Shown: in pieces, positions 529-62,190 of the stretch
Position numbering within the stretch: the first letter of the stretch is position 1
Layout: each line of letters starts with the position of its first letter
Virus record (IMG/VR): IMGVR_UViG_3300022699_000302
Coordinates: 130,115 to 194,114 of that record
Source of the DNA: a virus
Reading direction: 5' to 3' (one strand)
DNA: 64,000 nucleotides
The notes under the pieces: generated by a model
What the model was told of the DNA's origin: nothing
Database searches by the model: none
The model's input: only the letters and a program-made list of their open reading frames with translations
Made by a program: the position numbers and the translations under genes

Positions 529-1187
529 GAAAACTAAGCCTCGCTATTGTTGTAACAGCTTTGGCCGGCTGTTGCTCGCTCCCTCTTCCGCCACTACCTC
601 ATCCCGAACCACTAGATCTCGAACCCGACGTACAGATCGAGCACTTGGTTGCATCCGACGAAGCCAACGATCATCGCTTCTCGGTTCGAGTGAAATTTTA
701 CGAGTGGACCTCGTATGAACACGTAATCCAAGAAGTCCATCTTCCCGGAGGTTCAACTCTGGTGGAGGTATTTCGTACACCTAACGGGCGACTGGAAAGG
801 TGTCAAAGCGATCACCATCGAACAGACTGGGGCCCCGGTCACATCTACACTGGAACGTATGTGCGTCGCATGTTCGTATATCCTGGTAAGGTAGAAGGTG
901 TTGACTGGACGTCGAAGGGATTCGCTCAGCTACCCCAGAACAAGGACGGTAGTGTAACTACTACCATTGGAGACGGGTTCAACTCCAGCTATCAAGAGAA
1001 CCATGAGACTCGGGGAAGAGTAGTTGAGGCCGATCGTTCAGCGGGTTTCTGGTGGACAATCATCTACGAAAACGGCACAGTTCGAGTGGTAATACCAGAC
1101 CTTCACGAGTACTCCCCAGAAGAGGTCGAGGATGACACAGACGAGGATCTTTCAGTTCCACGCGCCCGAGACGGCGAGGCGGCATAA
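525..1187 (+). CDS. Predicted lipoprotein
   Basis: ATG at 525 (ATGA overlap) gives MRKLSLAIVVTALAGC: basic N-terminus, hydrophobic stretch and lipobox LAGC. The track start at 423 is probably too early. Confidence 0.6.
   Translation: MRKLSLAIVVTALAGCCSLPLPPLPHPEPLDLEPDVQIEHLVASDEANDHRFSVRVKFYEWTSYEHVIQEVHLPGGSTLVEVFRTPNGRLERCQSDHHRTDWGPGHIYTGTYVRRMFVYPGKVEGVDWTSKGFAQLPQNKDGSVTTTIGDGFNSSYQENHETRGRVVEADRSAGFWWTIIYENGTVRVVIPDLHEYSPEEVEDDTDEDLSVPRARDGEAA
645..667. repeat. 23-bp dispersed palindrome, copy 1 (inside CDS)
   Basis: TTGGTTGCATC C GACGAAGCCAA, read as LVASDEAN. Confidence 0.85.
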
Positions 1188-3513: not shown

Positions 3514-3514
3514 T

Positions 3515-5282: not shown

Positions 5283-7433
5283 ATGGGTGTAATTCCCGAC
5301 ATTGTCTCTCAGCTCAACCTGGTCCGGAACGGGGACTTCAGGCACTATGTCAATACGGACACTTCGCCCGCCCCAGGAGCCACGGTGTGGCCTCCTCTAA
5401 TCGCGCATTGGGAACTGTCTTTATCGGCAACCCCGCTTGCATCTACGGTGACGGATCAGGTCGTTGTGGGAGAACAGGAGCCCAAGAGGTACCTGGAGCT
5501 GCAGACCGGAGAAATCTTATCTCAGCGAATCATCTCAACAGACGTATTCCAGAGGCCGTCGGTACGGGAGAATGAGTGCTCTATTTCGAGTCTGGGCGTT
5601 GGTAACCAAATCACAGTGACAGCCACTGCTCCATTTTTCATCAATGATGAGCCGGCCCCCGCTCCCCTTTCTGCAATCTCGGTCTCCATGAATGTCGGCG
5701 ATCTCGTCCAAGTCGCTAATTTCACTGATTCTGATGGATCGGGCACGTATCGGGTGGTCTCAGTGACTTCCGATACTGTGGCGATCCTCGAACCGGTTAC
5801 TGTCCCTGACCCATCGGTCAATGCTGTTGGTCATGTCCTCAACGTGATCCGTACGCTCGATACCCACTTGATCGATCTGACCTTGGTCTACTCGATTCCG
5901 TCGGGCCAACCCGATACAGCTGTCACCCCCTCTATCGAGTTGATCCGTGAACTTCCCATGGCTGCTGACGCGGTCGGACCGATCACAATCGCCGGCGGTA
6001 ATACCTATGACTCTGTCATTAACCCTGGCGGCATCACCAAGCAAATGATTCATCGATTCGTTATCGAGCGTCCCCGGAAGCCTCGATACATCAACCTCAA
6101 GTTGCGTGAAACAGGCTTGGGCAGCATCGATATCGGAGATGTGGGATTGTTCATCGGCAATTACCACATGCCGGTTACAACGACTTTTCCTGTGCCTTCC
6201 GGCACGGTTCAGGATGCAATGCCTGTTCCACCCGATCATTTGCATCTATTGACTGGTCGGGGGGACCTGATCCTCATGAGGGCGGGATCCCAGGCGCCTG
6301 AAGGCTACAAGAAGCTCAAGGAAGAGATAGCCTTCCAGAACGCTGTAGTCACCATTACTTACGACGCTGTATCCGATCTTTCCGAGATTACTGTTACGGA
6401 CTGGCAAGTTCCTCCTGACCTTCTGTCGGGAACTTTCGAGATTGTATTCGAGGATAGTCCTGCGGCCCCTGGCAACCCCGGCCCCCTCGACATGTCGATT
6501 CGTATGTCGGACGTCGAGTTTTCCGATGGCCGAATTGGTGGGGCCGAGATCGACCTTGCCGGCTTAACTGCTGGTGAAACCGTTGAGATCGGATACCCGC
6601 CGTTCCCTAATACGGTGACTCTCACTGAAGGGATAGACTTCACCGATGCAGCGACCCTAGCAGCCGCGATCAATACGGATACGAATCTGAGCCCTGTTAT
6701 CGTAGCAACAGCCGTGGGCACAGTAGTAGAGATTAGAACTGTTACAGCTGGTTGGACTAATGCCCAGCTCGTTACAGAGGGTTATTCCGTGGCAGACACG
6801 GTTACCGGTGCTGACTGGGAAAAGATCGGCGGCGGTGCCTTATCTCCGGGGGGTCATCTCAACATCCCGACAGGTAACCCGACTTCAGCGTTGTTCAATG
6901 TCCGGGGAGACCACTCTCCTCGTTCCGGCTCATCGGCTCTAGTAGTAGCGACTGCCCCGCTTCTCTCTAACGCGTCTTCGCAGGCCGGCGACCTAGAAAA
7001 ACCATCGAAGCGAGGTACTGATGCAGTGGCTCTCGCCGCTGATCAACTCGAGCTCGATACGGCAGGTGTGGAGCTCAATGATATCCTGACCTTCACAACG
7101 GAAGACGGGGACCCTTTAGCTCCCTCAGGTGGTCAGGGGCCGACATATCAGATCACATCTGTGAATATCGAGGAAAACGAGGTCGTAGTACAAGACATCA
7201 CCGGGGGTTCTACTGATGTTACGGTGTATGCCACCACCGTGAACAACTATTATGTGATCGAAAAGTCATCAGCTAAGCACAGCCACTACGGCAGCAAAGC
7301 TGACATTGATGAGCGAGAGCTAGACTCCGGTGGTGCGAATTCCAATACTGGTCGTGGTAACCACGGTCACGAATTCTACGCGGACGACGCCATTCCGCCG
7401 TACCGTAAGTTCATCATCTGTGAGAAGTTGTAA
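5283..7433 (+). CDS. Short fibre/baseplate paralog 2, carrying an inserted domain shared with the sheath
   Basis: NLVRNGDF start, APEGYK collar, KHSH and NHGH motifs, ends FIICEKL. Confidence 0.6.
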   Translation: MGVIPDIVSQLNLVRNGDFRHYVNTDTSPAPGATVWPPLIAHWELSLSATPLASTVTDQVVVGEQEPKRYLELQTGEILSQRIISTDVFQRPSVRENECSISSLGVGNQITVTATAPFFINDEPAPAPLSAISVSMNVGDLVQVANFTDSDGSGTYRVVSVTSDTVAILEPVTVPDPSVNAVGHVLNVIRTLDTHLIDLTLVYSIPSGQPDTAVTPSIELIRELPMAADAVGPITIAGGNTYDSVINPGGITKQMIHRFVIERPRKPRYINLKLRETGLGSIDIGDVGLFIGNYHMPVTTTFPVPSGTVQDAMPVPPDHLHLLTGRGDLILMRAGSQAPEGYKKLKEEIAFQNAVVTITYDAVSDLSEITVTDWQVPPDLLSGTFEIVFEDSPAAPGNPGPLDMSIRMSDVEFSDGRIGGAEIDLAGLTAGETVEIGYPPFPNTVTLTEGIDFTDAATLAAAINTDTNLSPVIVATAVGTVVEIRTVTAGWTNAQLVTEGYSVADTVTGADWEKIGGGALSPGGHLNIPTGNPTSALFNVRGDHSPRSGSSALVVATAPLLSNASSQAGDLEKPSKRGTDAVALAADQLELDTAGVELNDILTFTTEDGDPLAPSGGQGPTYQITSVNIEENEVVVQDITGGSTDVTVYATTVNNYYVIEKSSAKHSHYGSKADIDERELDSGGANSNTGRGNHGHEFYADDAIPPYRKFIICEKL

Positions 7434-8449
7434 TGGCTCTGGGATCTTCAGCTGCGGGTGCGGGGCTCGGCCACGCGATCAACTGGCTGCGTAACGGCAG
7501 CCTGAACCGCATATTCCGGGGCGTCAGCTATACCACGTACGACGATGCACCAATTACCGATCAGCCTGCTAGTGATTACGCTTTCCAAGTCACAGATGAC
7601 GGTGGTGCAGGGGTTTACGACCCCTTCCCCTCATTGACTCTCGACGTTGGTGGAGACGCACCAACCGAGTCTCTTATGGCGAACTGGAGCATTTCTGGTG
7701 CCCAGGGGCAATTTGTTACTGAACCTCGAGATCCCGTTTCAGGAGAACGAGTAACAGGATTTGCAGGTACTTCTCCAGTCCGGTTCACTTTCCTTGAAAC
7801 TGGAGAGGTTGTTCTCGAACAATCGATCGACCCTTTCTCTCATCTACTAGATCGAGCTGCAACTCTGTTCATGTTTTTGGGAAAAGATGCGGGGTCGGTA
7901 AACGCTAAGCTACAGATCGATTACGGCACTCGAGTCGATGAGTCAATCAATGTCCCCAGCTCTGCGTACGGAGCCGGCGGGAATCTCCGACTCAATGTCA
8001 CACCACCTTACGATGCAACTCAGTTTGTTGTGAAAGTCACCTTGAGCGGGAATTCGAACAACTCGTTGTATCTCGGTCAGATGGGCCTTTATCTCGGTAA
8101 CTACAGCACAGTCCGCTTTGTCGACGATATTACAGAGCAGGGTCGACCTCGAGGTGAGTGTGCTTTCTATTGGGGGTATCCCGCACCTCCCGGATATCGA
8201 ACCATTTGTGAGGAAGACAATCTTCTCGTTTTCCATTCTACCGGAGATGCTCAAGTCGATGGTTTTGTCGAAGATCCCGTCGGAGGAGAGCGCGAACACA
8301 ACCATGGTGGCCGCACTAAAGTGGCGGACTCGGCTGACAACCCTAAGAAGGACGGCAAATTCGTCTTAGCGAAGAACCACTACCACTTTGTAGCACCTGC
8401 TGAGATGAATCCGCTCAACTTCAAGATCCTCATTGTCGAACGAATCTAG
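7433..8449 (+). CDS. Short fibre/baseplate paralog 3
   Basis: NWLRNGS start, APPGY collar, EHNH and NHYH motifs, ends ILIVERI. Confidence 0.6.
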   Translation: MALGSSAAGAGLGHAINWLRNGSLNRIFRGVSYTTYDDAPITDQPASDYAFQVTDDGGAGVYDPFPSLTLDVGGDAPTESLMANWSISGAQGQFVTEPRDPVSGERVTGFAGTSPVRFTFLETGEVVLEQSIDPFSHLLDRAATLFMFLGKDAGSVNAKLQIDYGTRVDESINVPSSAYGAGGNLRLNVTPPYDATQFVVKVTLSGNSNNSLYLGQMGLYLGNYSTVRFVDDITEQGRPRGECAFYWGYPAPPGYRTICEEDNLLVFHSTGDAQVDGFVEDPVGGEREHNHGGRTKVADSADNPKKDGKFVLAKNHYHFVAPAEMNPLNFKILIVERI

Positions 8450-8465: not shown

Positions 8466-8488
8466 TTGGTTGCATCGGATGAAACCAA
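8466..8488. repeat. 23-bp dispersed palindrome, copy 2 (intergenic)
   Basis: TTGGTTGCATC G GATGAAACCAA, extended by AC/GT flanks to 27 bp. Confidence 0.9.
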
Positions 8489-8490: not shown

Positions 8491-8519
8491 AAAAAAGGGG
8501 TGGGGCCCCGAAGGGCCCC
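8491..8519 (-). terminator. Intrinsic terminator
   Basis: Minus strand GGGGCCC-TTCG-GGGCCCC (UUCG tetraloop) followed by ACCCCTTTTTT. Confidence 0.75.
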
Positions 8520-8614: not shown

Positions 8615-8623
8615 TCTTAGGCC
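8615..8623 (-). promoter_or_regulatory. GGCCTAAGA promoter-like motif, copy 1
   Basis: Identical 9-mer also at 31893 and 33453, all intergenic and all on the minus strand. Confidence 0.55.
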
Positions 8624-22300: not shown

Positions 22301-25300
22301 TTGGAAGGTGCCGGCATCCGTCTCACCAACCGAGACGACACATTGCAGGCTACTCCTTTTACCGACAAGGAGATCCTGAAGCGATCAAAGGGTCGTATCA
22401 CGGAACCAGGTGTAGTCCGCACGTCAGGGTTTGACCTGGTCGAGGAAAAGAACGGGTTGTTCGATAAGAAGATCACCGGAGGCTTGCAGGGCGGACCGGA
22501 TAAATGGTCTCACATTGAACTGGCCGAACGCATCCTCCACCCGCTTTACGAGAAGCCGGTTCAGGCGGTCACGGGTCTAAAAAAGAAGGAGTTGGACGGC
22601 CTTCTCTCCGGTAAAAAGTTCGTCGATAAGGATGGCAACTTGGTTTCGTCCGATGCAACCAATAATCTAACCGGAGGCGAAGGAGTCCATCGTCTCCTGT
22701 CTAAGATCGACGTCCAAAAGGAACTGAGGTCGTCTCGAGCCCGGTTGGCTACTGCGAACAAGACTGAAAAGCCCAAGTTGTTGAAGAAGATCAAGTACTT
22801 GTCGTCTCTTGATCGGATGAAGTTGAATCCGGCTGAGGCATTCACCAACAAGTATCTTCCGGTGGTCCCTCCGACAGCCCGTCCAATTTATGCGATGGAT
22901 GACGGAAACCTCAATGTAGCCGACCCCAACCACGGTTATCGAGAGGTCCTGTTTATCAATCGTGCTCTCGAGGATCTGAAGAAGCACAAGATCGGTAACG
23001 AGACTCTAGCGCCGGTCCGGGCAGGGCTCTACAAAGCTACAGCAGGCCTGGTGGGCCTCACCACTCCACTGACCCGAAACGCCAACTTCAAGGGGTTCAT
23101 CTCTACAATCGCGGGTCAACAAAATAAGACCGGTCTATTCCAGTCCAAGGTGGTCAAGCGCACCCAGGACTTATCAGGTCGCTCGACCTTGATCGTGGAT
23201 CCGAAACTCCACATGGATCACATCGGGATTCCGAAGCCGATGGCGAAGAAAGTATTCGCTCCTATGGCTATTCGGAAGATGGTGGTGTCATACGGCCTGA
23301 ACCCTGTTGATGCACGAGATGAGCTGCAGAAGCTGACTCCTCGAGCCGAGAAGGCTCTTCAAGACACCATGGCGGAGCGCCCGGTGATCCTCAACCGTGC
23401 CCCGTCGCTCCACAAGTTCTCGACGGTTTCTGCTATCGGTAAGCTGGTCGACGGCCAGGCTATCCAGATCAACCCCCTGACAGTGGGAGGCCTAAACGCA
23501 GACTTTGATGGAGACACTGCCGCCCTTCACATACCGGTATCAGAGAAGGCCCGTATCGAGTCTTGGAAGAAGCTTCCCTCAAAGACTTTGATCTCCCCGA
23601 AAGATCTGAAGGTCATCCACGCACCCTCAAAGGAAGCGCTGTTCGGGTTGTACTACATGACTAAGCCAGTAAAAGGAAAAGCGACTCCGGTTAAAGATGC
23701 TCAGGACGTTTTGAAGCAGCTCAAAGAGCGAAAGATCGACGTCAATTCCCCGATCAAGTACAAAGGGAAAACGTGGACTCCTGGCCACTTCATGATCAAC
23801 TCAGTACTGCCGGATAAGTACAAGATTAACCACGAACCATTCACCGGCGGCAAGATCAAATCAGTGATTAATGATATGGCCCGATCTCATCCCAAGCAGG
23901 TCGGTGATGTGATCACGAAGCTCAAGGACTTTGGGTTTGATCACGCTTCGAAGCTAGGCTTCTCGGTAGGTCTGGATGACCTCGATAATCCCCAGATCGA
24001 CAAACTCAACAAGTCGATTCTTCCGAAGATCATGCAGCGGGCTAAGAAGAAGGATCCCGTCGAAGCGATCATTTGGGGGTCCGATAAAGCCGAAAAGGCA
24101 ATGGACAAACTCAAAGACAACCGGTTCGCTGAACTGACTTACCTCAGCGGAGCCGGAGGCAAGTATAAGGGCAACGTACAGCAAATGGTCATGGCCCCGA
24201 TTGGAGTAAAAGACACTAAGGGAGCTGCCGTACCGATTCCGATTACTCGAGGTTATGCTCGAGGAATGGATATGGGTTCCTATTGGGCAACTCTTCCCGG
24301 CATGCGTAAAGGCCTGGCGGATCGTGCAATCTCAACAGCAGACACCGGTGCTTTTGCTAAAGAACTGAACAATACTACTATTGGTTTGAGGATCGGTGGA
24401 GAGGATTGCAAGACCACGAACGGGATTGAGCTGCCCGTCAACCACAGCGATCTAGCCGGTCGATTCATTGCTGACGGTTCATTCAAAGGAAAGTTAGCGT
24501 CCCCTGATATCTTGAAGCAAATGCGAGGCAAGGGGGTGAAAACCGTCAAGGTCCGCTCGCCGGCCACCTGTGCACTCAAAACCGGAGTTTGTGCGAAGTG
24601 CATGGGAACCAACGAATCGGGCAGTCTCTACAACAAGGGATTTCATATCGGAGCTTTGGTCGGAACAACGATCTCCGAGCCCCTGACCCAGATGGTGATG
24701 CGCACGTTCCATACCGGAGCGAAGATTGGTGGTGGCGAGGTTGGCTATCGGAGGATCAATCAGATCTTCAACATGCCGAAGAATATTCGTGGCAAGGCCC
24801 CCTTGTCGACTCAGGCCGGTAAAGTCGAAGATATCCTTGAGACTGATCGTGGTGGCTGGGAAGTCACTGTTGGAGGAGCAAAACATTTCGTACCGACTGA
24901 GCTTAAGTTGAGAGTGAAGAAAGGACAGAAAATCAAGGCCGGTGACCAGCTGTCCCAACACGGTGTCGTTCATCCTCGCGAGCTCGCGAATTACAAGGGG
25001 ATCGATAAAGCTCGAGATCTCCTTCTGACCGACATCGAGAAAGAAATGAAGGCTTCGGGTCAGAATGTTCGCCGGCGTATCTACGAAGCGGCCGTGAGGC
25101 CTCTTATCGACAAAGCGTTAGTAACTAACCCTGGTGATGCCGAAGCGAAATATCATGTACAACCCGGAGATGTGGTCTCTTCTAACCACATCCCTGAGAT
25201 GAACAAGGGACTCAAACGTCCTCTGCAGGCCGAACCTCACTTGATGTCGATCAAGGAAGTTCCCTTCACGAGAGAAGACTTTATCGGCCCGCTGATGTTC

Positions 25301-31905: not shown

Positions 31906-31928
31906 TTGGTTGCATCTGGTGCAACCAA
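31906..31928. repeat. 23-bp dispersed palindrome, copy 4 (intergenic)
   Basis: TTGGTTGCATC T GGTGCAACCAA (one deviation from the consensus). Confidence 0.9.
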
Positions 31929-36115: not shown

Positions 36116-38941
36116 GTGCTGATCAAATATACACCTCCTGCATTGGATGATTTTGAGCCGCCTGCGGTCGATATCTTCGGTCGTGAATGGGGGAAGTATG
36201 CCAGTCGCAGCTATACTCCTCCTAAGATCGAGGAGTACCTTAAGACAGCTGAACCGGTAGACGGGCACCGTATCATCCTTGTTCATGGCCTGGGTTCATC
36301 CGAGGTATGGGGGGCTAACCGTAACGGAGACGCTTTTCCTGAGCACATGGTGGGTCCCGAGGGTCAAAAAGAAGCGACCCTAATCAACGGAGACGAAGAC
36401 AAGGACTGGGGGTACCACACCTTCCAGAAATACGCTTACTCTTTTCGTGACCACAAAAACCAAGATCCTAAGCTCACGATTGGTGGCAAAGTGATCGTGG
36501 CCGACTGGAACCCCGAGATGCACCGGGTCGAGATCGTTATGCCGATCTCGGAAAAGCTGGCTGCTGATGTAGTTGAGAAGATCGATAAGGGCGAGCCCGT
36601 CGAGGTTTCGATGGGTTGCTTCATCGCGGGTACGCTGATTACGATGGCCGACGGTTCCCGGAAGCCGATCGAAGATATCCAGGTTGGTGATTACGTACTG
36701 ACTCACAAAGGCCGTTCCCGCAAGGTGACCGAGCTTCATAAGCGGCCGTACGACGGCGTGTTCTTCGCGATCAGGCCTGAGGCGCACGAGCCTTTTGTAT
36801 GTACTCAGGAGCACCCTCTTCTTGTCGTAGACCGTGATGACGTCAAGAAAGGTAAATCGGGAGGGCCTCGATGGGTCACCAAGGAAGAGGCAGATCGAAT
36901 TGAGCCCAAGTGGATTCACGCCGAGTGCTTCAATCCCGATCAGCATTATCTACTTGAGCCGGTCTTGCAGGACGTTGTGACACCTGAGTACGCCACTCGT
37001 GAGTTTGCCCGTCTGCTTGGATATTATGTTGCCGAAGGGCATGTTCTTCGAAACAAGAGCAAAGACATTTGCGGCGTAGAGTTCACCGTCAATACGTCGG
37101 ATATTTTCTTGACCGAGATTGGTGAGCTTGCCGAGAAGTACGGCACGAAGAACCCGCCTGTAATACGTCAACGGGATAATTGTGACGACGCCGTGTCTGT
37201 TCAGATTTTTGATGCGGAGCTGGCCGAGCGGTTGTACGCCCATGGTGGATCGTACGCCAAACAGAAAAAGCTGTCCGAATCCTTCATGCAGTGGCATCCG
37301 GACATCCAGCGTGAATTCGTTGGAGCCTGGGCAGAAGGTGACGGGCACGGTCTGGATTCTGGAGCACTCAGCATTTCCACCGGATCTGATGCCTTGGCTT
37401 GGCAGTTGATGACTGTCCTGGCCCGGATGGATATTTGTGCTTCAATCAATTGCCTTACCCACAAGGCCGGATCTGGTCTCTCGAAGAAGACCACATATGA
37501 GTGGGTAATTCACGTCGGAAAACAGTGGGCACAAGATCTTCACGATGTGTGTTTGAAAATCAAAGACTCGCCCGTTCTTCTGGCGAAGAATAACCGCCTG
37601 CACACAGGTAAGTTCATCATCACTCCTGTGCGGGAAATGGAAGCCAGTCGTAACGCAGTCGATGTTTACAACTTCGAGGTGGAAGAAGATGAATCCTATG
37701 TAGCCGCCGGGGTTGCGGTTCACAACTGCAAGGTCGCTTATGATGTCTGCACCAAGTGCGGCAACAAAGCCAAAAACCGAGGCTATTATTGCAAGCATGC
37801 CCGGTATGAGATGGGCAAGCGCGACCCCGACGGACGCAAGACAGCAGTGCTCAACCCGCGTCCGAAGTTCTTTGACATTTCGATCGTGAAGCGCGGGGCT
37901 GATCGCGGAGCCAAGATTCTACTGAAAGTGGCCTCGAGCCAGATCCAAGTCCCGGATTGGCCGGATCGTAAATCAATCACAGCTGGCCTCAAGCTGAGTG
38001 ATATCGAGAAAGAAGTGCCCGGCGCCATCAAAGGCATCTCTCCGAGTACTTCAATGCAGAACCTCGAGAAGTCCCTTCAGCGCCGTATGGTTCAAGCCGA
38101 TATGGCTACGGCTGAGCCCCTGCCTCCCAAGGTCGCTTCTCTCATGAAAACGCGTCCTGACGAGGCATACTCAGCCCTTACCTCAGCGGGCATTGTATTG
38201 ATGCCGGGTGAGACTCCTGACGCTAAATCTCTGAAGCTCGGTTCGTATCGCCCCGATATTTGGGCTGGTATTGATCTCGAAGAGCTGATGAAAAAGAGGT
38301 CGATGTACGACCCGTTCTTCCTGCCTCGTGTCTTCACCAAGATGGCTCAGGCCAAGCACGGGATAATTGATCTCTCTGAAGAAAAGTTGGCTGCATCCGA
38401 TGCAACCAATTCAACGTATCGTACCTATCTCAAAATGCTGGGTGATATGTTCCGCAACGGGGATAAGTTGGCGGCCCTCTTCAAAACAGCCAATGAAGAT
38501 GAGCGAGTAGTCTATCAAGTCCGTAAGGGTGTCGATGAGTGGGCGAAGTTTGCCTACTACTGGGACTCCACGGAACGAAAAGGTTACTCGATTGACGATA
38601 TCGCTAATTTTCTCGGCCTTGATCAAGAAAAGACAGCAGCTCTACCTTCAGCCAAGCAGGTAGGTGAAGCTGCTCAGTGGGGCTGGGAAGGAGCAAAAGG
38701 TTTGGGTCGCGGTCTTACGGAGGCTTTAGGTATGGGAGCAACTCCTGCCTATCCCTTCTCCGCAGGGGTTGCGGCTCTTGGCGCCCCGATGCTGATGAGT
38801 CAATTCTATGCCGATAAGATGATGCGTGGTGAGGATCCTGGTGTTGTAGGACGCACTGTCGCTAAGCATCCATTGGCTACCTCAGCAGCAGGTCTTTTGG
38901 GGTCGATGAAACTTCATTCAGCTATGAATAGGTGGCGCTAA
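36116..38941 (+). CDS. Prohead (maturation) serine protease with intein and C-terminal extension
   Basis: NRNGDAF, FRDH (His), VSMG (Ser), CTKCG..CKH, FFDISIV..GAD..AKI. Confidence 0.8.
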   Translation: MLIKYTPPALDDFEPPAVDIFGREWGKYASRSYTPPKIEEYLKTAEPVDGHRIILVHGLGSSEVWGANRNGDAFPEHMVGPEGQKEATLINGDEDKDWGYHTFQKYAYSFRDHKNQDPKLTIGGKVIVADWNPEMHRVEIVMPISEKLAADVVEKIDKGEPVEVSMGCFIAGTLITMADGSRKPIEDIQVGDYVLTHKGRSRKVTELHKRPYDGVFFAIRPEAHEPFVCTQEHPLLVVDRDDVKKGKSGGPRWVTKEEADRIEPKWIHAECFNPDQHYLLEPVLQDVVTPEYATREFARLLGYYVAEGHVLRNKSKDICGVEFTVNTSDIFLTEIGELAEKYGTKNPPVIRQRDNCDDAVSVQIFDAELAERLYAHGGSYAKQKKLSESFMQWHPDIQREFVGAWAEGDGHGLDSGALSISTGSDALAWQLMTVLARMDICASINCLTHKAGSGLSKKTTYEWVIHVGKQWAQDLHDVCLKIKDSPVLLAKNNRLHTGKFIITPVREMEASRNAVDVYNFEVEEDESYVAAGVAVHNCKVAYDVCTKCGNKAKNRGYYCKHARYEMGKRDPDGRKTAVLNPRPKFFDISIVKRGADRGAKILLKVASSQIQVPDWPDRKSITAGLKLSDIEKEVPGAIKGISPSTSMQNLEKSLQRRMVQADMATAEPLPPKVASLMKTRPDEAYSALTSAGIVLMPGETPDAKSLKLGSYRPDIWAGIDLEELMKKRSMYDPFFLPRVFTKMAQAKHGIIDLSEEKLAASDATNSTYRTYLKMLGDMFRNGDKLAALFKTANEDERVVYQVRKGVDEWAKFAYYWDSTERKGYSIDDIANFLGLDQEKTAALPSAKQVGEAAQWGWEGAKGLGRGLTEALGMGATPAYPFSAGVAALGAPMLMSQFYADKMMRGEDPGVVGRTVAKHPLATSAAGLLGSMKLHSAMNRWR
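36617..37726 (+). mobile_element. Intein with LAGLIDADG homing endonuclease (370 aa)
   Basis: N-terminus CFIAGTLITMADG; C-terminus VYNFEVEEDESYVAAGVAVHN followed by +1 Cys; LLGYYVAEG and FVGAWAEGDG endonuclease blocks. Confidence 0.95.
38387..38409. repeat. 23-bp dispersed palindrome, copy 5 (inside the protease gene)
   Basis: TTGGCTGCATC C GATGCAACCAA, read as LAASDATN. Confidence 0.9.
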
Positions 38942-55053: not shown

Positions 55054-56544
55054 TTACTTGTTCAATCCTCGAGCCTTCACTACCAGGGTTTTGAGTAGTT
55101 TGCGGCCCGATGCATTGAATTCGGCCAGGTCTTCGGCAGACAGCCCGAGACGATCGCGGTACTCTGCAATCTTTTCGACAACTTCCTTGTCGGTGAGATC
55201 CGAAATACGACGAGCCTTCTTCTCCGACGCCTTGTCTTCCTTAGCCTTCTTCTCCTGCTTGGCTTTTGTCTTCTTAGCCCCCTTCTTCTTTTTCGATCCA
55301 GTTTTCTCTTTCTTATCGGTCTTCAGGACCTTCTCAGCCTTGGACTTTTCCTCCTTGGTGATTTGGTCCATCACACCAGTCCGTTCGAGGAGGTGGGTGA
55401 CGTTGGCGACCTTGAGTTTGACTTCATCGACTTTGCACCCGAAAAACTTCGATGCGTGTTTCTTCGACTCCTCGATGCAAAACGTACCTTTGTGTTCGTA
55501 CAGAGACAGTCCGGTTACGCCTTCCGGCAGCTTGTCGTGTTTGTGAATCGGAAAAGGAAGCAGAGCGATACCGAAGGCCGATTCGTAGGCTTTCAACAAC
55601 CGGGCAGCTCTTGCCTCGTCTAAGTCGTGCTCCGCCATCCAGGACTGAGCCATCTGGTAGAAGTGGTCTCCCTGACTGGGTTGTTCCCGTCCTTCTTGGC
55701 CGGCTCGTTTCACCGCGATCCGATAAGTTTCATCGATCTGATCAGCCTGCCACGCTTTGACCGAGAACCCATAACGACGTTCGACTTCATCAGGATTTTC
55801 CCCTTCTTCTGCTGCCTTAAGCTCTGCCACGGCAGTAGCAAAGCGTTGCTTGAGGTACTGATCGAAGTCTTTCTCCTTCATCAGGTTGACAGGGTTGGAT
55901 GGGGTCAAGAGCATCTTGTCTTCGTCGAGTTCGAAGTCTTTCTTGGTGGCAATACCAGAGACGAAGAACTTCCAGTACTTGGCCAAGCGGCCATAGTAGT
56001 ACTTGCTGATAGTCGTGACGTCTTTTTCCAGAGCAACCAACAACTGCGCAGCGCGGGCATACCGCACCGCCTGGGACCAATCGATCTTGTGAAAGATCGC
56101 GAAGTAGTCGACAGCGTTGTGCCCAGTATTCAGCTCTTTCCAGGCCTGACGGTTGATCAACCGAAGCATAGCGATGGCGAAATCCGCTCGACTGGTGTTG
56201 ATCTTCTCGTTTGCGATCTCGAGGTGGTCTTCGATCTCATTGGTAGAAGCGTTCAGCTTATACTTCTTCTTGTTGGCTTCTGACATGTACTTGAACATGA
56301 GGTCTTCAGCGTGTTCAACCGCATGCTCAGCCAGGTCTTTCGTGGCTTGGTCAATAATTTCATCGACCGGCTTGATCGACTTTTCTTCGGATTCGTTTTT
56401 GGCTTTCTTCTCTTTGATGTCGACAACCTCCACATCAACTACTTTGGACTTTTTAGACTTCTTGGTTTTGGTCTTGGCTTTGGTCTTAGGGGTACTCTTC
56501 TTTGCTTTCTTTCCCTTGGACTTCTTCTGAGTCTTCGTTGCCAT
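55054..56544 (-). CDS. Hypothetical protein with H1-like Lys-rich termini
   Basis: AGGAG before ATG 56544; MATKTQKKSKGKKAKKSTPKTKAK. Confidence 0.7.
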   Translation of the reverse strand: MATKTQKKSKGKKAKKSTPKTKAKTKTKKSKKSKVVDVEVVDIKEKKAKNESEEKSIKPVDEIIDQATKDLAEHAVEHAEDLMFKYMSEANKKKYKLNASTNEIEDHLEIANEKINTSRADFAIAMLRLINRQAWKELNTGHNAVDYFAIFHKIDWSQAVRYARAAQLLVALEKDVTTISKYYYGRLAKYWKFFVSGIATKKDFELDEDKMLLTPSNPVNLMKEKDFDQYLKQRFATAVAELKAAEEGENPDEVERRYGFSVKAWQADQIDETYRIAVKRAGQEGREQPSQGDHFYQMAQSWMAEHDLDEARAARLLKAYESAFGIALLPFPIHKHDKLPEGVTGLSLYEHKGTFCIEESKKHASKFFGCKVDEVKLKVANVTHLLERTGVMDQITKEEKSKAEKVLKTDKKEKTGSKKKKGAKKTKAKQEKKAKEDKASEKKARRISDLTDKEVVEKIAEYRDRLGLSAEDLAEFNASGRKLLKTLVVKARGLNK

Positions 56545-56558
56545 GGTTTCTCCTGGAC

Positions 56559-56581
56559 TTGGCTGCGTCCGATGCAACCAA
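56559..56581. repeat. 23-bp dispersed palindrome, copy 6 (intergenic)
   Basis: TTGGCTGCGTC C GATGCAACCAA; it fills the gap between stop 56582 and the next RBS. Confidence 0.9.
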
Positions 56582-57505
56582 TTACGCAAAACAAATATGT
56601 CTGAACGGGCACTTCTTGGCCCGATTACATGATTTACTGGAACACACCCGTTCTACCTTATGCGGTGTCTCCCTGTCGACGTTCTTTTTGATCAACCGAA
56701 TCTGACTGTAAAGCCAGTCAACTACGTGGTCTGAACCCGTTACGATATAGGACTTCGGGGCATAGGTGTCTTTGTTGACGTAGATCACCATGACTCCGTC
56801 TACTCCCTTAGCGTGGGCGTACACCAGCCCCTGGATCATATGAGCTCGGTTCGGCTCTGTCCTCTTGGGGTGATTCCACTTATTCTGGCTCTTCAATTCT
56901 GCGATGTATCTCTTCCCGTTGACGAGGCGAATTTCTCCATCGCAATGTCCGACTACACGATAATGGGCGTGTTCTTGTTCGGTCAGATCCTCTTCCTCAC
57001 AGTTCAACACTACATGTGCAGGGATCTGAATCCTCTCTTCCTTGAACCAGATATCGTCTTGCGGGGCGCCACAGCTATCACACTTTTTCGGCATCTTGAT
57101 GATGTCGTCGTTGGTACCGTGGACAGCACTGCAAGAAAAACACTCCCAACGCCCATAAAGAATACCCATGGGTCCGAGAATACGAGACTGCCACCACAGG
57201 TGGGTAGCATGGCCGGCCTCGAAGATCATCTGTGTTTCAGGAGAGGGACGAACCGACGGGACTTTGTCGCCTGCCTTGATCGCTATGACCTTATAGACTT
57301 GTTCACGTAGGCAGAAATTCCCCAAACCCGAGGGATGAATACCGGGTAATCGGTAATCTGGCTCCCTTTCATACTTGATCCATGCTCGTACAGCATTACT
57401 GAGTTGAGGGAACTCCTGGACCTGGAATTCGTCGACCGGTCCAGTCGGCAAGCACTTCAGAAGGAGCTCGGCTTCGGTTTGGGCTGCGTGATCGATTCGA
57501 GCCAT
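56582..57505 (-). CDS. Cas4-like PD-(D/E)xK exonuclease
   Basis: HPSGLGNFCLRE, GHCDG, IAELKS, QGLVY, C-terminal C..C..KCPFRHIC Fe-S pattern, plus CFSC/CDSC insert. Confidence 0.8.
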   Translation of the reverse strand: MARIDHAAQTEAELLLKCLPTGPVDEFQVQEFPQLSNAVRAWIKYEREPDYRLPGIHPSGLGNFCLREQVYKVIAIKAGDKVPSVRPSPETQMIFEAGHATHLWWQSRILGPMGILYGRWECFSCSAVHGTNDDIIKMPKKCDSCGAPQDDIWFKEERIQIPAHVVLNCEEEDLTEQEHAHYRVVGHCDGEIRLVNGKRYIAELKSQNKWNHPKRTEPNRAHMIQGLVYAHAKGVDGVMVIYVNKDTYAPKSYIVTGSDHVVDWLYSQIRLIKKNVDRETPHKVERVCSSKSCNRAKKCPFRHICFA

Positions 57506-57729
57506 TTTACGAACTCCTCTCTATCCCCTGTGTACGTGAATTTCGATTTCTCGCCCTTCGGTGTCCTGCAGGTAATTATGACGCCGTCTTTGGTGGATCC
57601 AATAAGGTAAAACTCGTAATCGCTGTGAGCCATTCGGCAGATCGACAGGAGTTCGGCCATGTCCCTTAGTCGGTCTTCTTTGGTCTCTTCCGAAGGCGGG
57701 AGACCTTCTTTTTTGGTAGATCCTTCCAT
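57457..57729 (-). CDS. Hypothetical protein
   Basis: 90-aa ORF with GGAG upstream; overlaps both neighbours. Confidence 0.5.
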   Translation of the reverse strand: MEGSTKKEGLPPSEETKEDRLRDMAELLSICRMAHSDYEFYLIGSTKDGVIITCRTPKGEKSKFTYTGDREEFVKWLESITQPKPKPSSF

Positions 57730-58304
57730 TCTTGTTTCTCCACGAGATCTGCGAACTCCGCTTTGTCTAGCTCGTACCAGTGGGTCAGGTGGGAGTACAA
57801 TGCCTTTTCCTCCGGTATTGCTTCGATGGCTGTCTTTCCTCTAAGAGGTTTACTGAGAAGGGCCTTTGGCACAAAAAAACGCATATCCACCGCCTCAGGG
57901 TCATCTGGTACGGTACAGTCCATCCACGCTGTGGAGACGATGGGTATGCGTTTCTGTACCATAGCCTCTCTCGTAACCTTGGCAAAGATCCCATAGCTAG
58001 GAGTTTTCGGAAGACGACTGAGGCCGGCTTTGCACTCAACCAGGAGAGTCTTGTTCTTAACGTCTCCTTTAGCGAATGTGCCGGCCCCGCTAGCTTTGAC
58101 ACTACGTCCTCTAATCAAGGAACAGATTATCGCTATCTGCCTCGTCTCCGCTGCTCTCTTCTTTGGGTTCTGCCTTCTTGTTGTTTCCGCTGCTTTTCTT
58201 TCCTTTTGACTTGGTTCCTCCAGACTTAGTGCCTTTCTTACCTTTCTTAGTCCGGGGTCCTGTGAGAGAAACTTTCGCAATCTCGAGTTCCCCTTTGACG
58301 TCAT
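57666..58304 (-). CDS. PD-(D/E)xK (Hjc-like) resolvase/endonuclease; start uncertain
   Basis: E..IA..SGAG...GDV...LLVECK. Confidence 0.65.
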   Translation of the reverse strand: MTSKGNSRLRKFLSQDPGLRKVRKALSLEEPSQKERKAAETTRRQNPKKRAAETRQIAIICSLIRGRSVKASGAGTFAKGDVKNKTLLVECKAGLSRLPKTPSYGIFAKVTREAMVQKRIPIVSTAWMDCTVPDDPEAVDMRFFVPKALLSKPLRGKTAIEAIPEEKALYSHLTHWYELDKAEFADLVEKQEWKDLPKKKVSRLRKRPKKTD

Positions 58305-59514
58305 GGTCTACCTCTGCATCGTAAAACGGGTTATAGAAATAGTTCTCCGAATTGAGGTAGGGTTTGGCCGATTCCGGAAAAGTCGCATAGAAGATCGGGT
58401 AGCGTGCCATCCACTGCATGTCTTTATTCCTCAAGGCTTGCAGGGCTTCTCCTTTTTTCCCGAACGTGATGCCGAGAACTTCGTATCCTTCTTTGGTCTT
58501 ACCGGCCAACTTAAGTGCCTCTAGCCAGTCCCACAACCTCTCCGGTTCGTCGGAATCACCGACCCTCTTTCCCTTGTAGTCCTGCATGTAGCCGCGATAG
58601 CTGCCGACATAGTTCATCCCCCCGCCCATAGTGGCCTTGTCAATCTTGAACTGGAAGTCGGCGTATCGAAGGGAGTCTGCTTCTGCGATAGCTTTCTTAT
58701 CGATCTTCTCGTTGATTTTGGGTCGGTTGAGGTAGATGTTGGTTGTCATCATGTGACGGTAGGCATGGCCTCCTGCCTCTTTCTGTTTCCGTCCGTACAT
58801 CGTGAGGTTGGCCCGCATCTGATTAGTGCCTACGATCGTAATATCACCGTCCTGACTCGATCCGAGCTTGTGATTTTCACGGAGCACGGTAAAGATCAGG
58901 TTTTGGATCATCTTGGCGTGAGCGCCAACTTTGGCATTGGATGACCGTCGGCCGTCCATCTCTTCGGGGAACAACGAGGCAAACGAGTCGACAATGAACG
59001 CGTCGACAACCCGCCTCCCGCTCTTTGCTGATTCTTCGATACGATCGGTCAGGAAATCGCCAGACTTCGGGTAGCCGATCAGGAAATGCGCTTTATCGTC
59101 GAGAGGAAGGTCGAACCCTTTGTGAGCATACGCAGGGTCGAGGCGACGTTCAGCCGCTACAAAGATCGTCCGCATGCGCTTCTTCTTACCACACTTACAC
59201 GTAGTCTTGACCTCCCCAGTCTCGTAGTTATGCCAGTCGATGATCGGAGTCCAGCACTTCCGACAAGTGTTGTACATCGTGTGGGCCAGGCGCAGCATCA
59301 TGTGCGTTTTGCCGGCGTGTTCGGCTCCGACTACTGCAGAGTTCTGCCCCCGAGGGAATCCTCCCCGCAGAGCTATGTCGAGCTCGATGTACCAGGTAGG
59401 GAGCCGCACCCAAGATGTCTCGAGTGCGGCGCCCAGTGAGTCAAGCCATTTCAGGCTCAGACCTTCGTTGTCTTCGCCTTCCATGAATCTTTCGAGGCCT
59501 TGTTTCTTAGCCAT
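58111..59514 (-). CDS. recA: RecA-like recombinase with Zn-finger insert
   Basis: LDIALRGGFPRG, Walker A GAEHAGKT, FVAAERRLDP, FIVDSFASL, TNQMR, GGHAYRH; CRKC..CKC insert. Confidence 0.88.
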   Translation of the reverse strand: MAKKQGLERFMEGEDNEGLSLKWLDSLGAALETSWVRLPTWYIELDIALRGGFPRGQNSAVVGAEHAGKTHMMLRLAHTMYNTCRKCWTPIIDWHNYETGEVKTTCKCGKKKRMRTIFVAAERRLDPAYAHKGFDLPLDDKAHFLIGYPKSGDFLTDRIEESAKSGRRVVDAFIVDSFASLFPEEMDGRRSSNAKVGAHAKMIQNLIFTVLRENHKLGSSQDGDITIVGTNQMRANLTMYGRKQKEAGGHAYRHMMTTNIYLNRPKINEKIDKKAIAEADSLRYADFQFKIDKATMGGGMNYVGSYRGYMQDYKGKRVGDSDEPERLWDWLEALKLAGKTKEGYEVLGITFGKKGEALQALRNKDMQWMARYPIFYATFPESAKPYLNSENYFYNPFYDAEVDHDVKGELEIAKVSLTGPRTKKGKKGTKSGGTKSKGKKSSGNNKKAEPKEESSGDEADSDNLFLD

Positions 59515-59531
59515 GAACCACCTCAGTTCGT

Positions 59532-60287
59532 CTATTGGTCGTCTTTGTCGAGAACACCCATTCCCTGCAGGTCTTGAGTGACTTTATGCTGAGTCTTCAG
59601 ACGGTCAGTTGTGGTAACCCTGTCCATACGGAGACTCATCAGGCCCTGAGTCATGTCGTTCTCTTCATTCGGGTCAATACCGATGATGTGCTTGATATCT
59701 TCAAGCACTGCGGTCGATAAGACGCCGTCGTCGGGCCACCGATCGTAGAGATAGTGAGAAAGGATGTCAGGGACCGAGAAATCATCAAGGCTCCGAGCAT
59801 CCTGTTCGTCGAACTCTGTCTCAAGGTCTTTGAGCGGGTCGAGCTGGACAAGCGGATGAGGGTCCAGGGGCATTCCGTGGCTGTCGATCATAAAGAACAC
59901 CAGGTTCTGCTTTTTGGGCTTCTTACGGTACTCCAGCGGATGGCCCTGAGACATCTCCTTTTTCGCTTTGTGTTCCTCAAGAATCGGACTGAGCTGGCTG
60001 GCAAGATGATTAGCCATCATCTCCATGCCTTCGGGTTCCATGTAGATGTTCTGGGTTTTCCGGTCCAGGGACTCGATGCCGGCGTGAGCCAGGGCTGCGA
60101 TCTGGACAAACCGTTGTCGGATTTTCCCCGGATGGTGGTCTCGAACAGCTCGCCTGCACTTGATCGTATAGGATTCGATGAACCCCAACCAGTCGCTAAA
60201 GGTGTGATTATCGTCGTGATCGGGGCCACCCCAAATGGTGTTCTGACGGAGCCGCTCCATCAGGATGTCTTTCAATGCGATGTACAT
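59532..60287 (-). CDS. Protein with an N-terminal MazG-like helical domain
   Basis: ERLRQNTIWG..HTFSDWLGFI..FVQIAALAHAGIESLDR. Confidence 0.45.
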   Translation of the reverse strand: MYIALKDILMERLRQNTIWGGPDHDDNHTFSDWLGFIESYTIKCRRAVRDHHPGKIRQRFVQIAALAHAGIESLDRKTQNIYMEPEGMEMMANHLASQLSPILEEHKAKKEMSQGHPLEYRKKPKKQNLVFFMIDSHGMPLDPHPLVQLDPLKDLETEFDEQDARSLDDFSVPDILSHYLYDRWPDDGVLSTAVLEDIKHIIGIDPNEENDMTQGLMSLRMDRVTTTDRLKTQHKVTQDLQGMGVLDKDDQ

Positions 60288-60295
60288 AAAATCTC

Positions 60296-60799
60296 CTAGA
60301 TAAGTTCGACGTCGTCATCATCGTCGTCGGACTCTTCCTCCATTTCGGACATATCGAATAGGTCGTCTTTATCCAGCTTGTTGTCGGGTTTGTGCAGGCC
60401 TTCGGGCTTGAGTTTCACTACGCCAGCTTGTGTCTCAACCCGGCTCTTGACCAGACCGTCTGCGATCTCGCCAAGGGCTTCCACTGCATCGTCAATATCC
60501 TCCCTGTTCTCGAAAGGCTCGACGGGGACTGCTTTCATGACCAGCCAGGATGTCGCTGTCGAGTAAGCGTTGCGACCGTCTTCGTGGTGCAAGCTCAGTT
60601 GGATCTGTGTCCCCAGCTGCACCTCCCCCACGGGATGAGGGAGTGCGGTCTTTTTCGGTTTCTTCGATTTCGGCATGATTCTCTCCAGATCTACACGCTT
60701 CATGACGTGCAGAAATACCTCGTTTTCGACGACGCTATAGATAAAGATACAGCTACCGCAGGGGTCACTGCGGTGCAGTGGTGGTAGAACAGCGTTCAT
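60296..60799 (-). CDS. Hypothetical protein with acidic tail
   Basis: ATGA-coupled to the helicase; ends EEESDDDDDVELI. Confidence 0.55.
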   Translation of the reverse strand: MNAVLPPLHRSDPCGSCIFIYSVVENEVFLHVMKRVDLERIMPKSKKPKKTALPHPVGEVQLGTQIQLSLHHEDGRNAYSTATSWLVMKAVPVEPFENREDIDDAVEALGEIADGLVKSRVETQAGVVKLKPEGLHKPDNKLDKDDLFDMSEMEEESDDDDDDVELI

Positions 60800-62190
60800 A
60801 TGAGTTGCCTAATGATTCGTGGATGGTTGCCGCGAAGCCTTAACCATCGGGCGTGATTATAGACTTTAGCGGATTCAATCGCCAAGTACCCTTTTCGGAC
60901 ACGTCTGACTGCGCGTCCGATGAGTTGGGGGATGTTGTCGACGGGATCGATAACGATCGGCGTTGCCTTGCCCTCGGCTTTCCGTTGGATCCTCCCGGTG
61001 TATTGACGAGGGTCACTGACCGGCAAAGCGTGGACCAAGCAGTCGAAGTGTTCGATGTCGAGCCCTACACCTCCTTTTCCGTGGGTCGCGAAAACAGTAC
61101 ACCTCGGATCCTTCATGGCCTCTTTGACCTCTTTAGCCTCTTCCTTAGAAGTCTTCCCCATGAACAAAGCACAAGGTGTTTTGGTGGTATCAAAAACGGT
61201 CTGAGCCAGTTGGGCCAAGTGGGCTTTGTACTTACCTAGTACAAGGACCCGGCGCCGTTTCTTGATCATCGAAACAATTGCTTTGACCAGGAACCCGTTA
61301 CGATTGATGTCGTCGGCCAGGGCTCGATCGAGTTGGAATTTCCCGCACTCCTTGTACTCCTTGACTCGATAGTCGGGGTGTTCGTAGGGGTGCATGTGGA
61401 CCTCAACAGGTTCCTGATCGGTGTCCAGCGTTACTTTCTTGTAGGCCAGAGCTCGGCGGAACACCTTACCTAAGCCGTCCATCCTCTCACCAGTAGCGGT
61501 GAGGGCTAGGCTGTAGTGGAAGTTGATGTTCCACAGTCCCATCTGAAATTTGGGAGCACTGAGCAGGTGAGCCTCGTCTGCTATCAAAAGATCGAAGTCG
61601 TACCGGTCCGACTCTTTATACAGGGTTTGCAGCATGATTACGACGAGATCGGCGTCCAGCTCTTTCTTGCCTCCACCGAACCGACCAACCTTGATATCTG
61701 GGAAGAAGCGATGAGCAGCTGAGATCCACTGCTCGAAGACTACTTCAGAGGGAACAATGACCCCGGTTTTACCGCCGATGTTGCCGGCAACCCACAGGCC
61801 CGAGACTGTTTTTCCTGACCCACAAGGAGCTTCAGCATAAACACCCATGCAACTCCGGACTTCTTCGGCCAGGTCCGGAGTTGAGGTATGGGGATTTTTT
61901 GGAGTGGCCTGATGAGGCCGAAGTTTCCCGTTGAACTCCCAGGGCTTGTAGGGGCCCCGGGGCTCAATAACTTTGACTTCTACATCGAGATGGCCATGCA
62001 GTCGCTTGAGATACCAGAACTTCGGGAGATAGTAGAATTCATTAGCTACGGTAAATCCCTCGAAGGTCTCCTCGTCCATGGTCTCGTAGGTCAGTTCCTC
62101 CTCGATCTTGGTTTCATCCGATGCAGCCAAGGCGTCTTTCGGGACTTTGACAACACCACCCATTACCACTTTTCGTTTTGATTCAGCCAC
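60796..62190 (-). CDS. Superfamily II helicase (UvsW/XPB-like)
   Basis: LRPHQ, APCGSGKT, DEAH, LTAT, QYTGRIQR. Confidence 0.92.
   Translation of the reverse strand: MAESKRKVVMGGVVKVPKDALAASDETKIEEELTYETMDEETFEGFTVANEFYYLPKFWYLKRLHGHLDVEVKVIEPRGPYKPWEFNGKLRPHQATPKNPHTSTPDLAEEVRSCMGVYAEAPCGSGKTVSGLWVAGNIGGKTGVIVPSEVVFEQWISAAHRFFPDIKVGRFGGGKKELDADLVVIMLQTLYKESDRYDFDLLIADEAHLLSAPKFQMGLWNINFHYSLALTATGERMDGLGKVFRRALAYKKVTLDTDQEPVEVHMHPYEHPDYRVKEYKECGKFQLDRALADDINRNGFLVKAIVSMIKKRRRVLVLGKYKAHLAQLAQTVFDTTKTPCALFMGKTSKEEAKEVKEAMKDPRCTVFATHGKGGVGLDIEHFDCLVHALPVSDPRQYTGRIQRKAEGKATPIVIDPVDNIPQLIGRAVRRVRKGYLAIESAKVYNHARWLRLRGNHPRIIRQLI
62108..62130. repeat. 23-bp dispersed palindrome, copy 7 (inside the helicase gene)
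   Basis: TTGGTTTCATC C GATGCAGCCAA, read on the minus strand as LAASDETK. Confidence 0.9.

Follow-up and report, generated by a model that had tools for sequence, protein, structure and literature searches.

A regularly spaced, genome-wide array of 23-bp dyad sites in an uncultured phage, with counterparts of different sequence in its relatives

The stretch of DNA considered here, the last 64 kb (positions 130115-194114) of the IMG/VR record IMGVR_UViG_3300022699_000302, belongs to an uncultured phage and carries several copies of a 23-bp palindromic sequence (dyad) scattered between and within its genes. The complete record, denoted here as G000, is 194,114 bp long, and its ends overlap by 99 bp, which indicates a circular assembly. 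Coordinates given without a label count from G000 130115 and refer to this 64-kb window, while all others are labelled with the genome to which they belong (G000, G005, G008, etc.). Six exact matches to TTGGYTKCRTCNGAYGMARCCAA were found in the window, at 645, 8466, 22640, 38387, 56559 and 62108, together with a seventh copy at 31906 that has one mismatch to this pattern and TCTGG at its centre. When the window was shuffled 100 times with preservation of its dinucleotides, the mean number of exact matches was 0.00, and that of matches with up to three mismatches was 0.01. An earlier note on this sequence had described a genome-wide system of seven copies. All seven do lie where they had been placed, and the shuffles contain virtually none, but they represent only the window's share of the 23 copies found in the complete genome. 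The dyad observation is real and not due to chance.

Four of the seven copies in the window are coding. The first one (645..667, TTGGTTGCATCCGACGAAGCCAA) encodes the peptide LVASDEAN, in the post-lipobox linker of a lipoprotein (real start codon: the ATG of MRKLSL..., near window position 525); the homologue encoded by the related phage G005 has a different peptide there. The second (22640..22662) encodes LVSSDATN, residues 1095-1102 of the product of a fused beta-beta' RNA polymerase (RNAP) gene (19358-25462). The third (38387..38409, that is, G000 168501) encodes LAASDATN in a 941-aa intein-containing protein (gene 36116-38941) and is co-positional with the G005 site at 40308, which encodes MAADSAAM. 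The fourth (62108..62130) encodes LAASDETK in the N-terminal segment of a helicase (gene 60796-62163, minus strand), a segment that aligns with its homologues and reads LRNEDLDK in G005. The remaining three copies are intergenic. That at 8466..8488 (G000 138580) lies 16 nt past the stop codon of the gene 7433-8449, has G at its centre on the plus strand and is co-positional with the G005 site at 67669. The copy at 31906..31928 (G000 162020) is degenerate, has T at its centre and abuts a leftward GGCCTAAGA promoter-like motif. The last one, at 56559..56581 (G000 186673), is co-positional with the G005 site at 22552 and exactly fills, as had been anticipated, the gap between the stop codon of a Cas4-like exonuclease gene (56582-57505, minus strand) and the ribosome-binding site of the gene for a 496-aa Lys-rich protein (55054-56544, minus strand), so that the minus strand reads TAA-dyad-gtccAGGAGaaaccATG.

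The pattern scan of the full genome identified the 23 copies at up to three mismatches and none at four, and the reversed pattern, used as a control, gave no match; hence, the motif is not confined to the fragment in which it was first noticed. The consensus over the 23 copies is TTGGTTGCATCGGATGCAACCAA, that is, TTGGTTGCATC-S-GATGCAACCAA. Positions T2, G3, G4, C8, G16 and C21 are invariant, whereas T1, A22 and A23 are conserved in only about 90% of the copies; the claim that the terminal TTGG and CCAA never vary thus holds for T2, G3, G4 and C21 but not for T1, A22 and A23. All copies but one have C or G at the centre (22 of 23). Gene calls made on the basis of codon usage (230 genes in G000) placed 15 sites in intergenic DNA, for the most part where neighbouring genes of the same direction leave very little room, even though about 86-93% of the genome is coding, and 11 of these 15 are located at most 30 nt from a start codon. 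The other eight are coding or overlap gene ends. The array comprises tens of copies, intergenic as well as within open reading frames (ORFs), at a frequency far above chance.

All coding copies are read in one frame, TTG-GYT-KCR-TCS-GAY-GMA-RCC-AAn. This frame and the number of coding copies in the window agree with the earlier note, as do three of the host genes it had named (lipoprotein, RNAP and helicase); the fourth, taken for a protease, is the 941-aa gene, which matched only intein (Hint) families and no protease family. The comparison with homologous proteins supported the proposal that the DNA site has been imposed on the proteins. In RNAP, the eight residues encoded by the dyad fall in a hypervariable stretch of 12 residues; five homologues lack this stretch, and the nearest ones carry another sequence there. 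The G005 orthologue of the 941-aa protein carries, at the corresponding point, the dyad proper to G005, with MAADSAA replacing LAASDAT, and at the N-terminus of the helicase LAASDETK is aligned to LRNEDLDK. As judged from these alignments, the DNA site overwrites weakly constrained, variable or indel-prone segments of the proteins, with the peptide following the DNA motif.

The relatives of this phage were identified through RNAP, by a search of IMG/VR with an alignment of this protein; they belong to a large phage family, with sizes of up to about 200 kb. Peptide patterns derived from the single RNAP sequence had found no match in IMG/VR, and a megablast search with 20 kb of G000 against GenBank phages had yielded no close relative. 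Five related phages proved to have a dyad of their own, present about once every 8-10 kb and built on a common 21-bp frame, TG(G/T)-N15-(A/C)CA. In the 76-kb fragment G005 (67% RNAP identity to G000) the motif is TGGCKGCAGA-S-TCTGCMGCCA, with seven sites. The complete genomes G008 (195 kb) and G009 (193 kb), both with 42% RNAP identity, carry 24 sites of the form TGGGAYTAT-N3-ATARTCCCA and 25 of the form TGRCACTGG-N3-CCAGTGYCA, respectively, so that the complete genomes G000, G008 and G009, all about 194 kb in size, contain 23, 24 and 25 sites. The 131-kb fragment G006 (42%) has 16 sites of TGGYCATAC-N3-GTATGRCCA, and the 155-kb fragment G007 (41%) has 15 sites of TGTGTC-N9-GACACA at up to one mismatch. 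Reversed-pattern controls gave no match for any of these site sets; a looser scan of G007, allowing two mismatches, gave 32 matches versus seven in its control. In the complete genomes G013 and G014, with about 33% RNAP identity, de novo dyad searches returned only codon-driven palindromes and no family of this kind.

Three of the seven G005 sites occupy the same gene positions as G000 186673, 168501 and 138580, with the same orientation of the centre, while the others are shifted by a few kb with the spacing kept. The replacement of a whole array in concert, together with the persistence of some of its positions, is the signature of a set of cis-acting sites that co-evolves with a trans-acting reader. 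The same concerted change of a site array and its repressor has been documented for the stoperators of mycobacteriophages (PMC6550527, PMC9283540). The array is conserved across the clade, with changing sequence and turnover of positions. The exact G000 motif was met only as scattered single copies, regarded as chance or irrelevant, in IMG/VR, in JGI metagenomes and in 185,579 bacterial and archaeal species genomes (596 Gb), and no host-chromosome array of it was found among the latter. As a separate observation, a 3406-aa gene of G009 (163054-173274) holds four dyad copies in one frame, at 163901, 164324, 165521 and 167084, an unusually tight cluster, given that sites elsewhere are about 8 kb apart.

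The sites are also distributed far more regularly than random placement would produce, with coefficients of variation (CV) of the gaps of 0.39-0.62 in the three complete genomes. In G000 the mean gap is 8.4 kb and the CV 0.456, where about 0.94 is expected (P about 1e-4), and in a separate test none of 20,000 random placements was as regular. The same result, 0 of 20,000, was obtained for G008 (mean gap 8.1 kb, CV 0.389), and significant regularity was found in G009 (7.7 kb, CV 0.62, P 0.0085), G006 (8.2 kb, CV 0.47, P 0.0016) and G005 (9.6 kb, CV 0.43, P 0.04). In G007, whose site set is uncertain, the value was not significant (9.5 kb, CV 0.71). It was argued from the combination of regular spacing and positional turnover that coverage of the chromosome is what selection maintains, rather than the control of particular genes.

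A further property emerged from the central base, the only asymmetric one in the site. On the plus strand of G000, sites at 12-25 kb have C there, the 13 sites between 31 and 120 kb all have G, and C returns at 130-192 kb, where the exceptions are 138580 (G) and 162020 (T), the former being the only clear one. A two-arc fit covers 22 of the 23 sites (permutation P 0.001). The direction of the genes agrees with the central base at 13 sites and disagrees at nine and, consequently, does not explain the arcs. Codon preference was likewise considered and rejected as the cause of the central base, because TCG (800 occurrences) is commoner than TCC (630) and yet six of the eight coding copies use TCC. 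The first switch of polarity falls in a region that contains a gene for a winged helix-turn-helix (wHTH) protein of the HTH_36 family (G000 23198-23782), directly followed by three tandem 23-bp iterons (CCCGCACGACACATATGTCGTCC; G000 23794-23862), all of which contain a palindrome, with a 15-bp repeat rich in A/T coming next. In a Tandem Repeats Finder (TRF) run over the whole genome these iterons were the top-scoring non-coding tandem repeat, and they occur nowhere else; a gene whose product has the helix-turn-helix (HTH) of DnaA domain IV lies nearby, at G000 27179-27769. On the strength of this layout, G000 23198-23904 is a candidate replication origin, and the wHTH protein probably reads its own iterons. 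The origin features were looked for only after the polarity switch had been seen, although the TRF scan spanned the entire genome. If the origin is set at 23.8 kb and the terminus opposite (120.8 kb), the leading strand carries G at 20 of the 22 centres (two-sided binomial P 1.2e-4), and a scan of all possible origins gave the best fit at 24.7-31.5 kb, with 21 of 22 (permutation P 4e-4). The orientation of the central base by genome half suggested a polarity of the bound complex relative to replication. In G009, half-sites of the form TGGCAC...GTGTCA and TGACAC...GTGCCA define two unequal arcs that fit 18 of 19 sites. Overall, the polarity is real in G000 but unexplained, and it is not cleanly reproduced in the relatives. 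Regarding iterons in these phages, G008 has a 24-bp repeat in 3.9 tandem copies (185122-185215) inside an initiator-like HTH_36 gene (184374-185684, minus strand), a layout of the lambda O-type origin, and similar clusters are present at G006 329-384 and G007 94057-94122.

What kind of molecule might recognize such sites could be approached from the way in which the two halves vary. A palindrome of this size might form a stem-loop with a potential 10-bp stem and a 3-nt loop, acting as an RNA terminator, an attenuator or an inter-cistron processing or stabilising element, or as a single-stranded DNA hairpin for priming or as an N4-like hairpin promoter. Such a function would suit the several copies located exactly between a stop codon and the next ribosome-binding site, those that adjoin GC-rich terminators, and the fact that the relatives keep the dyad symmetry though the sequence differs. 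However, covariation between mirrored positions of the 23 copies scored 0.125, under the mean of 0.146 obtained after shuffling, and 454 of 500 shuffles scored as high. The pairs 7/17 and 9/15 show changes on one side only, and the counts for the pair 5/19 look independent. All 23 copies carry at least one non-Watson-Crick position, and the wobbles (14 on the sense and 17 on the antisense strand) are set against 32 and 29 true mismatches, with G:U not favoured over A:C on either strand. Moreover, no Rfam family matched the dyads, inspection of the flanks revealed no T-run or U-tract after them, and copies occur within essential genes and in both orientations. The lack of covariation, the mismatches in all copies, the absence of a wobble preference and the lack of an Rfam match lead to the rejection of a selected RNA or single-stranded hairpin, an explanation that the covariation result has already largely refuted and that we consider very improbable. 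The formal test thus bore out the suggestion that non-compensatory changes speak for a dimer on double-stranded DNA. In addition, the 11-nt half-site is never found by itself in the window but only as part of a full dyad, and the spacing of the halves is fixed, the 21-bp frame being constant in six genomes. This independent variation of the half-sites fits a dimeric protein that would read duplex DNA and tolerate deviations in one half. The notion of a selfish element without function for the phage, either a miniature repeat resembling MITEs (miniature transposable elements with inverted repeats) or repetitive extragenic palindromic (REP) sequences or the by-product of a repeated peptide motif, draws on the presence of a short inverted repeat in many, often intergenic, copies. 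It is already contradicted and scarcely credible: the unit spans only 23 bp, the flanks of the 23 copies share nothing further and there are no target duplications; in-frame copies in four unrelated proteins, with most copies non-coding, do not make a peptide repeat; and the copies are regularly spaced, and from one relative to another they have all altered together, with some positions retained.

Two other explanations accept a protein that acts on the sites and differ in the task assigned to it. The dyads might serve a global regulator of transcription as operators or roadblocks, much like stoperators, the O_B sites of KorB, the P1 C1 operators or the phiC31 conserved inverted repeats (CIRs), so that a dimeric repressor or activator would switch or insulate transcription units at one stage of infection and the spacing would mirror the size of the units. 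This possibility, which we regard as doubtful, is favoured by the excess of intergenic sites and their proximity to start codons, described above, by the position of five dyads upstream of leftward GGCCTAAG promoter-like motifs and of two just before TATACTGG boxes, by the fact that start-proximal sites point CGG toward the gene in nine of 11 cases in G000 and in four of four in G005, and by the possession of a phage RNAP with sigma-like factors; the co-evolution of stoperator arrays and repressors provides a precedent (PMC6550527, PMC9283540). Against it, eight sites are intragenic, one of them in the essential RNAP gene, a dyad is found at only five of the 36 GGCCTAAG motifs, no distance to any -10-like element is fixed, and exact positions turn over among relatives while number and spacing are kept. 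Furthermore, neither a tyrosine integrase (PF00589) nor an HTH_3 protein was found in G000 (serine integrases were not searched), and this lack of an integrase and of a Cro/CI-type HTH makes a lysogenic silencer unlikely. Alternatively, the sites might be targets of a processing enzyme, such as T5-like nick sites, Chi-like signals for a module of helicase, nuclease and RecA, or recombination hot spots that shuffle gene modules. The phage does encode a RecA-like recombinase, helicases, a ligase and a Cas4-like PD-(D/E)XK exonuclease, the latter restricted to the dyad-bearing subclade, and both even spacing and strand polarity would be expected of signals that limit degradation or mark one strand, just as sites at gene boundaries would be of junctions for module shuffling. 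Nevertheless, Chi and nick sites of the known kinds have no need of a symmetric sequence of 21-23 bp, being short and asymmetric themselves, and the comparison of G000 with G005 showed no gene cassettes flanked by dyads; we consider this explanation improbable.

The explanation that we prefer, although only tentatively and at somewhat less than an even chance, is that the dyads form a genome-scale array of dimer-binding sites in duplex DNA, serving as loading, anchoring or barrier points that are possibly polar to replication. In this model, each dyad would be bound by a two-fold symmetric, sequence-specific protein, most likely encoded by the phage, and the functional unit would be the whole array of 23 sites, held about 8 kb apart round the genome, rather than any single site. 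The sites might be where a process that has to reach the entire chromosome is loaded, anchored or blocked, instead of acting as operators of particular genes. Selection would place them where 21-23 bp are tolerated, namely in tiny gaps between a stop codon and a ribosome-binding site and in variable protein loops, and their sequence would co-evolve with the reader, giving each relative its own version within the fixed TG(G/T)-N15-(A/C)CA frame. The central C/G, as the single asymmetric base, would be oriented in G000 by genome half relative to the candidate origin. Whereas the sites themselves, the independence of their halves, their even spacing, their conservation with turnover in the clade and their imposition on coding sequence are established observations, we infer that a protein binds them, that the phage encodes this reader, that the role is genome-scale and that it is linked to replication. 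The more general proposition of the earlier note, that this is a dispersed array of cis-acting sites and not a simple operator, has been strengthened by the 23 dispersed copies and by the arrays that the relatives carry on their own.

Several observations weigh against this array model. No binder was identified: among 178 G000 proteins of 50-330 aa and 44 larger ones, only four with a DNA-binding HTH were detected by Pfam (the wHTH/HTH_36 protein, the protein with DnaA domain IV and two sigma-like proteins), and none of them could be convincingly tied to the dyads. The three candidates previously put forward, encoded at 53147, 31962 and 55054, received no support, since none has a match to a DNA-binding family. 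Among the relatives, a strong HTH_36 match was obtained only in G008, and the genes limited to the dyad-bearing subclade comprise several large proteins without a family match, a sigma-70-like factor and the Cas4-like exonuclease. As for the replication component, GC and TA skews at third codon positions (GC3, TA3) in G000 show no replichore signal at the motif arcs, the orientation of the centre is mixed over the equivalent region of G005, G008 (with its iterons inside the HTH_36 gene, at 185.1 kb) has no centre polarity, and the polarity in G009 is confounded with gene direction, which it tracks in 14 of 17 cases. Finally, operon structure could partly account for the even spacing, and both the many intergenic sites 11-27 nt before a start codon and the five dyads 12-55 bp upstream of leftward GGCCTAAG motifs also fit gene regulation.

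The genes around the sites deserve a brief description. The RNAP gene (19358-25462, plus strand) is a single gene, coding for 2034 aa, in which the beta and beta' parts of a multisubunit RNA polymerase are joined; its homologues number in the hundreds on phage contigs whose size reaches about 200 kb, and inteins interrupt many of these homologues. Sigma-70-like genes are present at 51839-52708 (minus strand) and at G000 108787-109317. The 941-aa protein (36116-38941, plus strand) holds an intein (Hint plus LAGLIDADG) that spans approximately residues 165-540, and the host protein of this intein (about 470-510 aa in G008 and G009) has no family match. A recombination and replication module occupies 55054-62645 on the minus strand and includes, in addition to the Lys-rich protein (no family match) and the Cas4-like PD-(D/E)XK exonuclease already mentioned, a RecA/Rad51-like ATPase (58111-59514), the helicase of superfamily 2 (60796-62163) and a NUDIX hydrolase (62193-62645), all of them on the minus strand. 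With respect to transcription signals, GGCCTAAG occurs 36 times in G000, 33 of them leftward (minus strand), while TAWACTG boxes are mostly rightward and precede virion genes, a distribution that supports two putative promoter classes of opposite strand preference. Inspection did not favour a sigma-70-type promoter, as no -10 element is found at a fixed distance, nor a sigma-54-type one, as the GG...GC spacing is one base too long. Between two plus-strand genes, the segment 8490-8625 contains on the minus strand a leftward GGCCTAAG motif near 8616 and an intrinsic terminator (stem 8502-8519, T-run to about 8492) that adjoins the dyad at 8466; a leftward RNA of about 100 nt would be predicted here, ending beside this dyad.

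Three properties constrain the function of the array: its regular spacing with 23-25 sites, the wholesale replacement of its sequence while some positions are kept, and the overwriting of protein sequence in essential genes. Together, they point to a fast-evolving protein-DNA recognition pair that acts chromosome-wide in a large virulent phage. In its most ambitious form, which we consider rather unlikely, the proposal would be that a subclade of phages of ~190 kb with their own RNA polymerase has a coordinate system of about 24 evenly placed dyads, evolving together with their reader, read by a novel protein family and oriented by replichore in at least one genome. Made of palindromic sites, this system would be a phage counterpart of Ter, of FtsK-orienting polar sequences (KOPS) or of matS and would give replication, compaction or packaging their loading or barrier points rather than regulating single genes. 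If the link with the direction of replication were true, it would represent a rare viral case of replichore-style organisation and would offer a sequence handle on the origins and termini of uncultured jumbo-sized phages.

A few groups of cultured phages are known to carry dispersed repeat arrays, most of which have found no explanation. The Cluster O mycobacteriophages harbor, genome-wide, more than 30 copies of a 17-bp dyad, 5'-TGTTCGGNNNCCGAACA, of unknown function, which lie in narrow spaces between genes, close to gene 5' ends and within ORFs, with variable or asymmetric central bases (PMC4351075). Their 7-bp arms are invariant, they occur about once per 2 kb in a genome of about 70 kb, and no meaningful orientation has been reported (PMC4351075). 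The G000 array resembles them in consisting of short dyad sites spread over the genome, both intergenic and within ORFs, but its sites are 21-23 bp long with degenerate halves, occur regularly at about one per 8 kb and change in sequence between relatives. A second parallel is found in the stoperators of Cluster A, repressor sites that recur some 24-36 times over the genome, in short intergenic stretches and inside some genes, oriented and co-evolving with their binder; they are asymmetric, 13-14 bp long, read by a monomer, oriented with transcription and serve lysogenic silencing (PMC6550527, PMC9283540). Like them, the G000 array is dispersed and oriented and shows a co-evolution-like replacement of sequence; unlike them, its site is dyad-symmetric, its central base follows gene direction in only 13 of 22 cases, and the search of the genome, which did not extend to serine integrases, found neither a PF00589 integrase nor an HTH_3/CI-like repressor.

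A further parallel is offered by the sites read by dimers that act at a distance. The O_B sites of KorB from plasmid RK2 are odd-length palindromes with a central S (TTTAGCSGCTAAA) and, like the parS sites of ParB, matS, the Noc-binding sites (NBS) and the SlmA-binding sites (SBS), they exist in a dozen or more dispersed copies, some of them intragenic or distant from promoters. The G000 dyad is of the O_B type in being dispersed and an odd-length palindrome with a central S, but it has no sequence resemblance to parS, O_B or matS. By inspection, the 16-bp parS consensus tGTTNCACGTGAAACa shares no core with the dyad consensus, and ParB_N (PF02195) is missing from G000 (no match at E<=0.1 over the whole genome, with control genomes positive), in keeping with the initial impression that the dyad is unlike the canonical parS. 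Even spacing round the whole replicon has not, to our knowledge, been reported for any of these arrays. Lastly, as in Tus-Ter and RTP-Ter, KOPS and Chi, the G000 sites form two opposed groups, which would switch at a putative origin-terminus axis (an origin placed at 23.8-31.5 kb, with the terminus opposite, accommodates 20-21 of 22). No homologue of Tus or RTP was encountered, although no search was aimed at one. Ter sites have a length of 23 bp and are clustered in the terminus half of the chromosome, and Ter, KOPS and Chi are asymmetric, whereas the polarity in G000 depends on one base of a symmetric site and is not reproduced in the relatives. The even spacing of the array, its presence across a clade with changing sequence, and the polarity of its central base go beyond the earlier note; compared with the known systems, the array is set apart by its regular spacing, its fixed 21-bp frame of rapidly evolving content, its copies within coding sequence and its possible replichore polarity.

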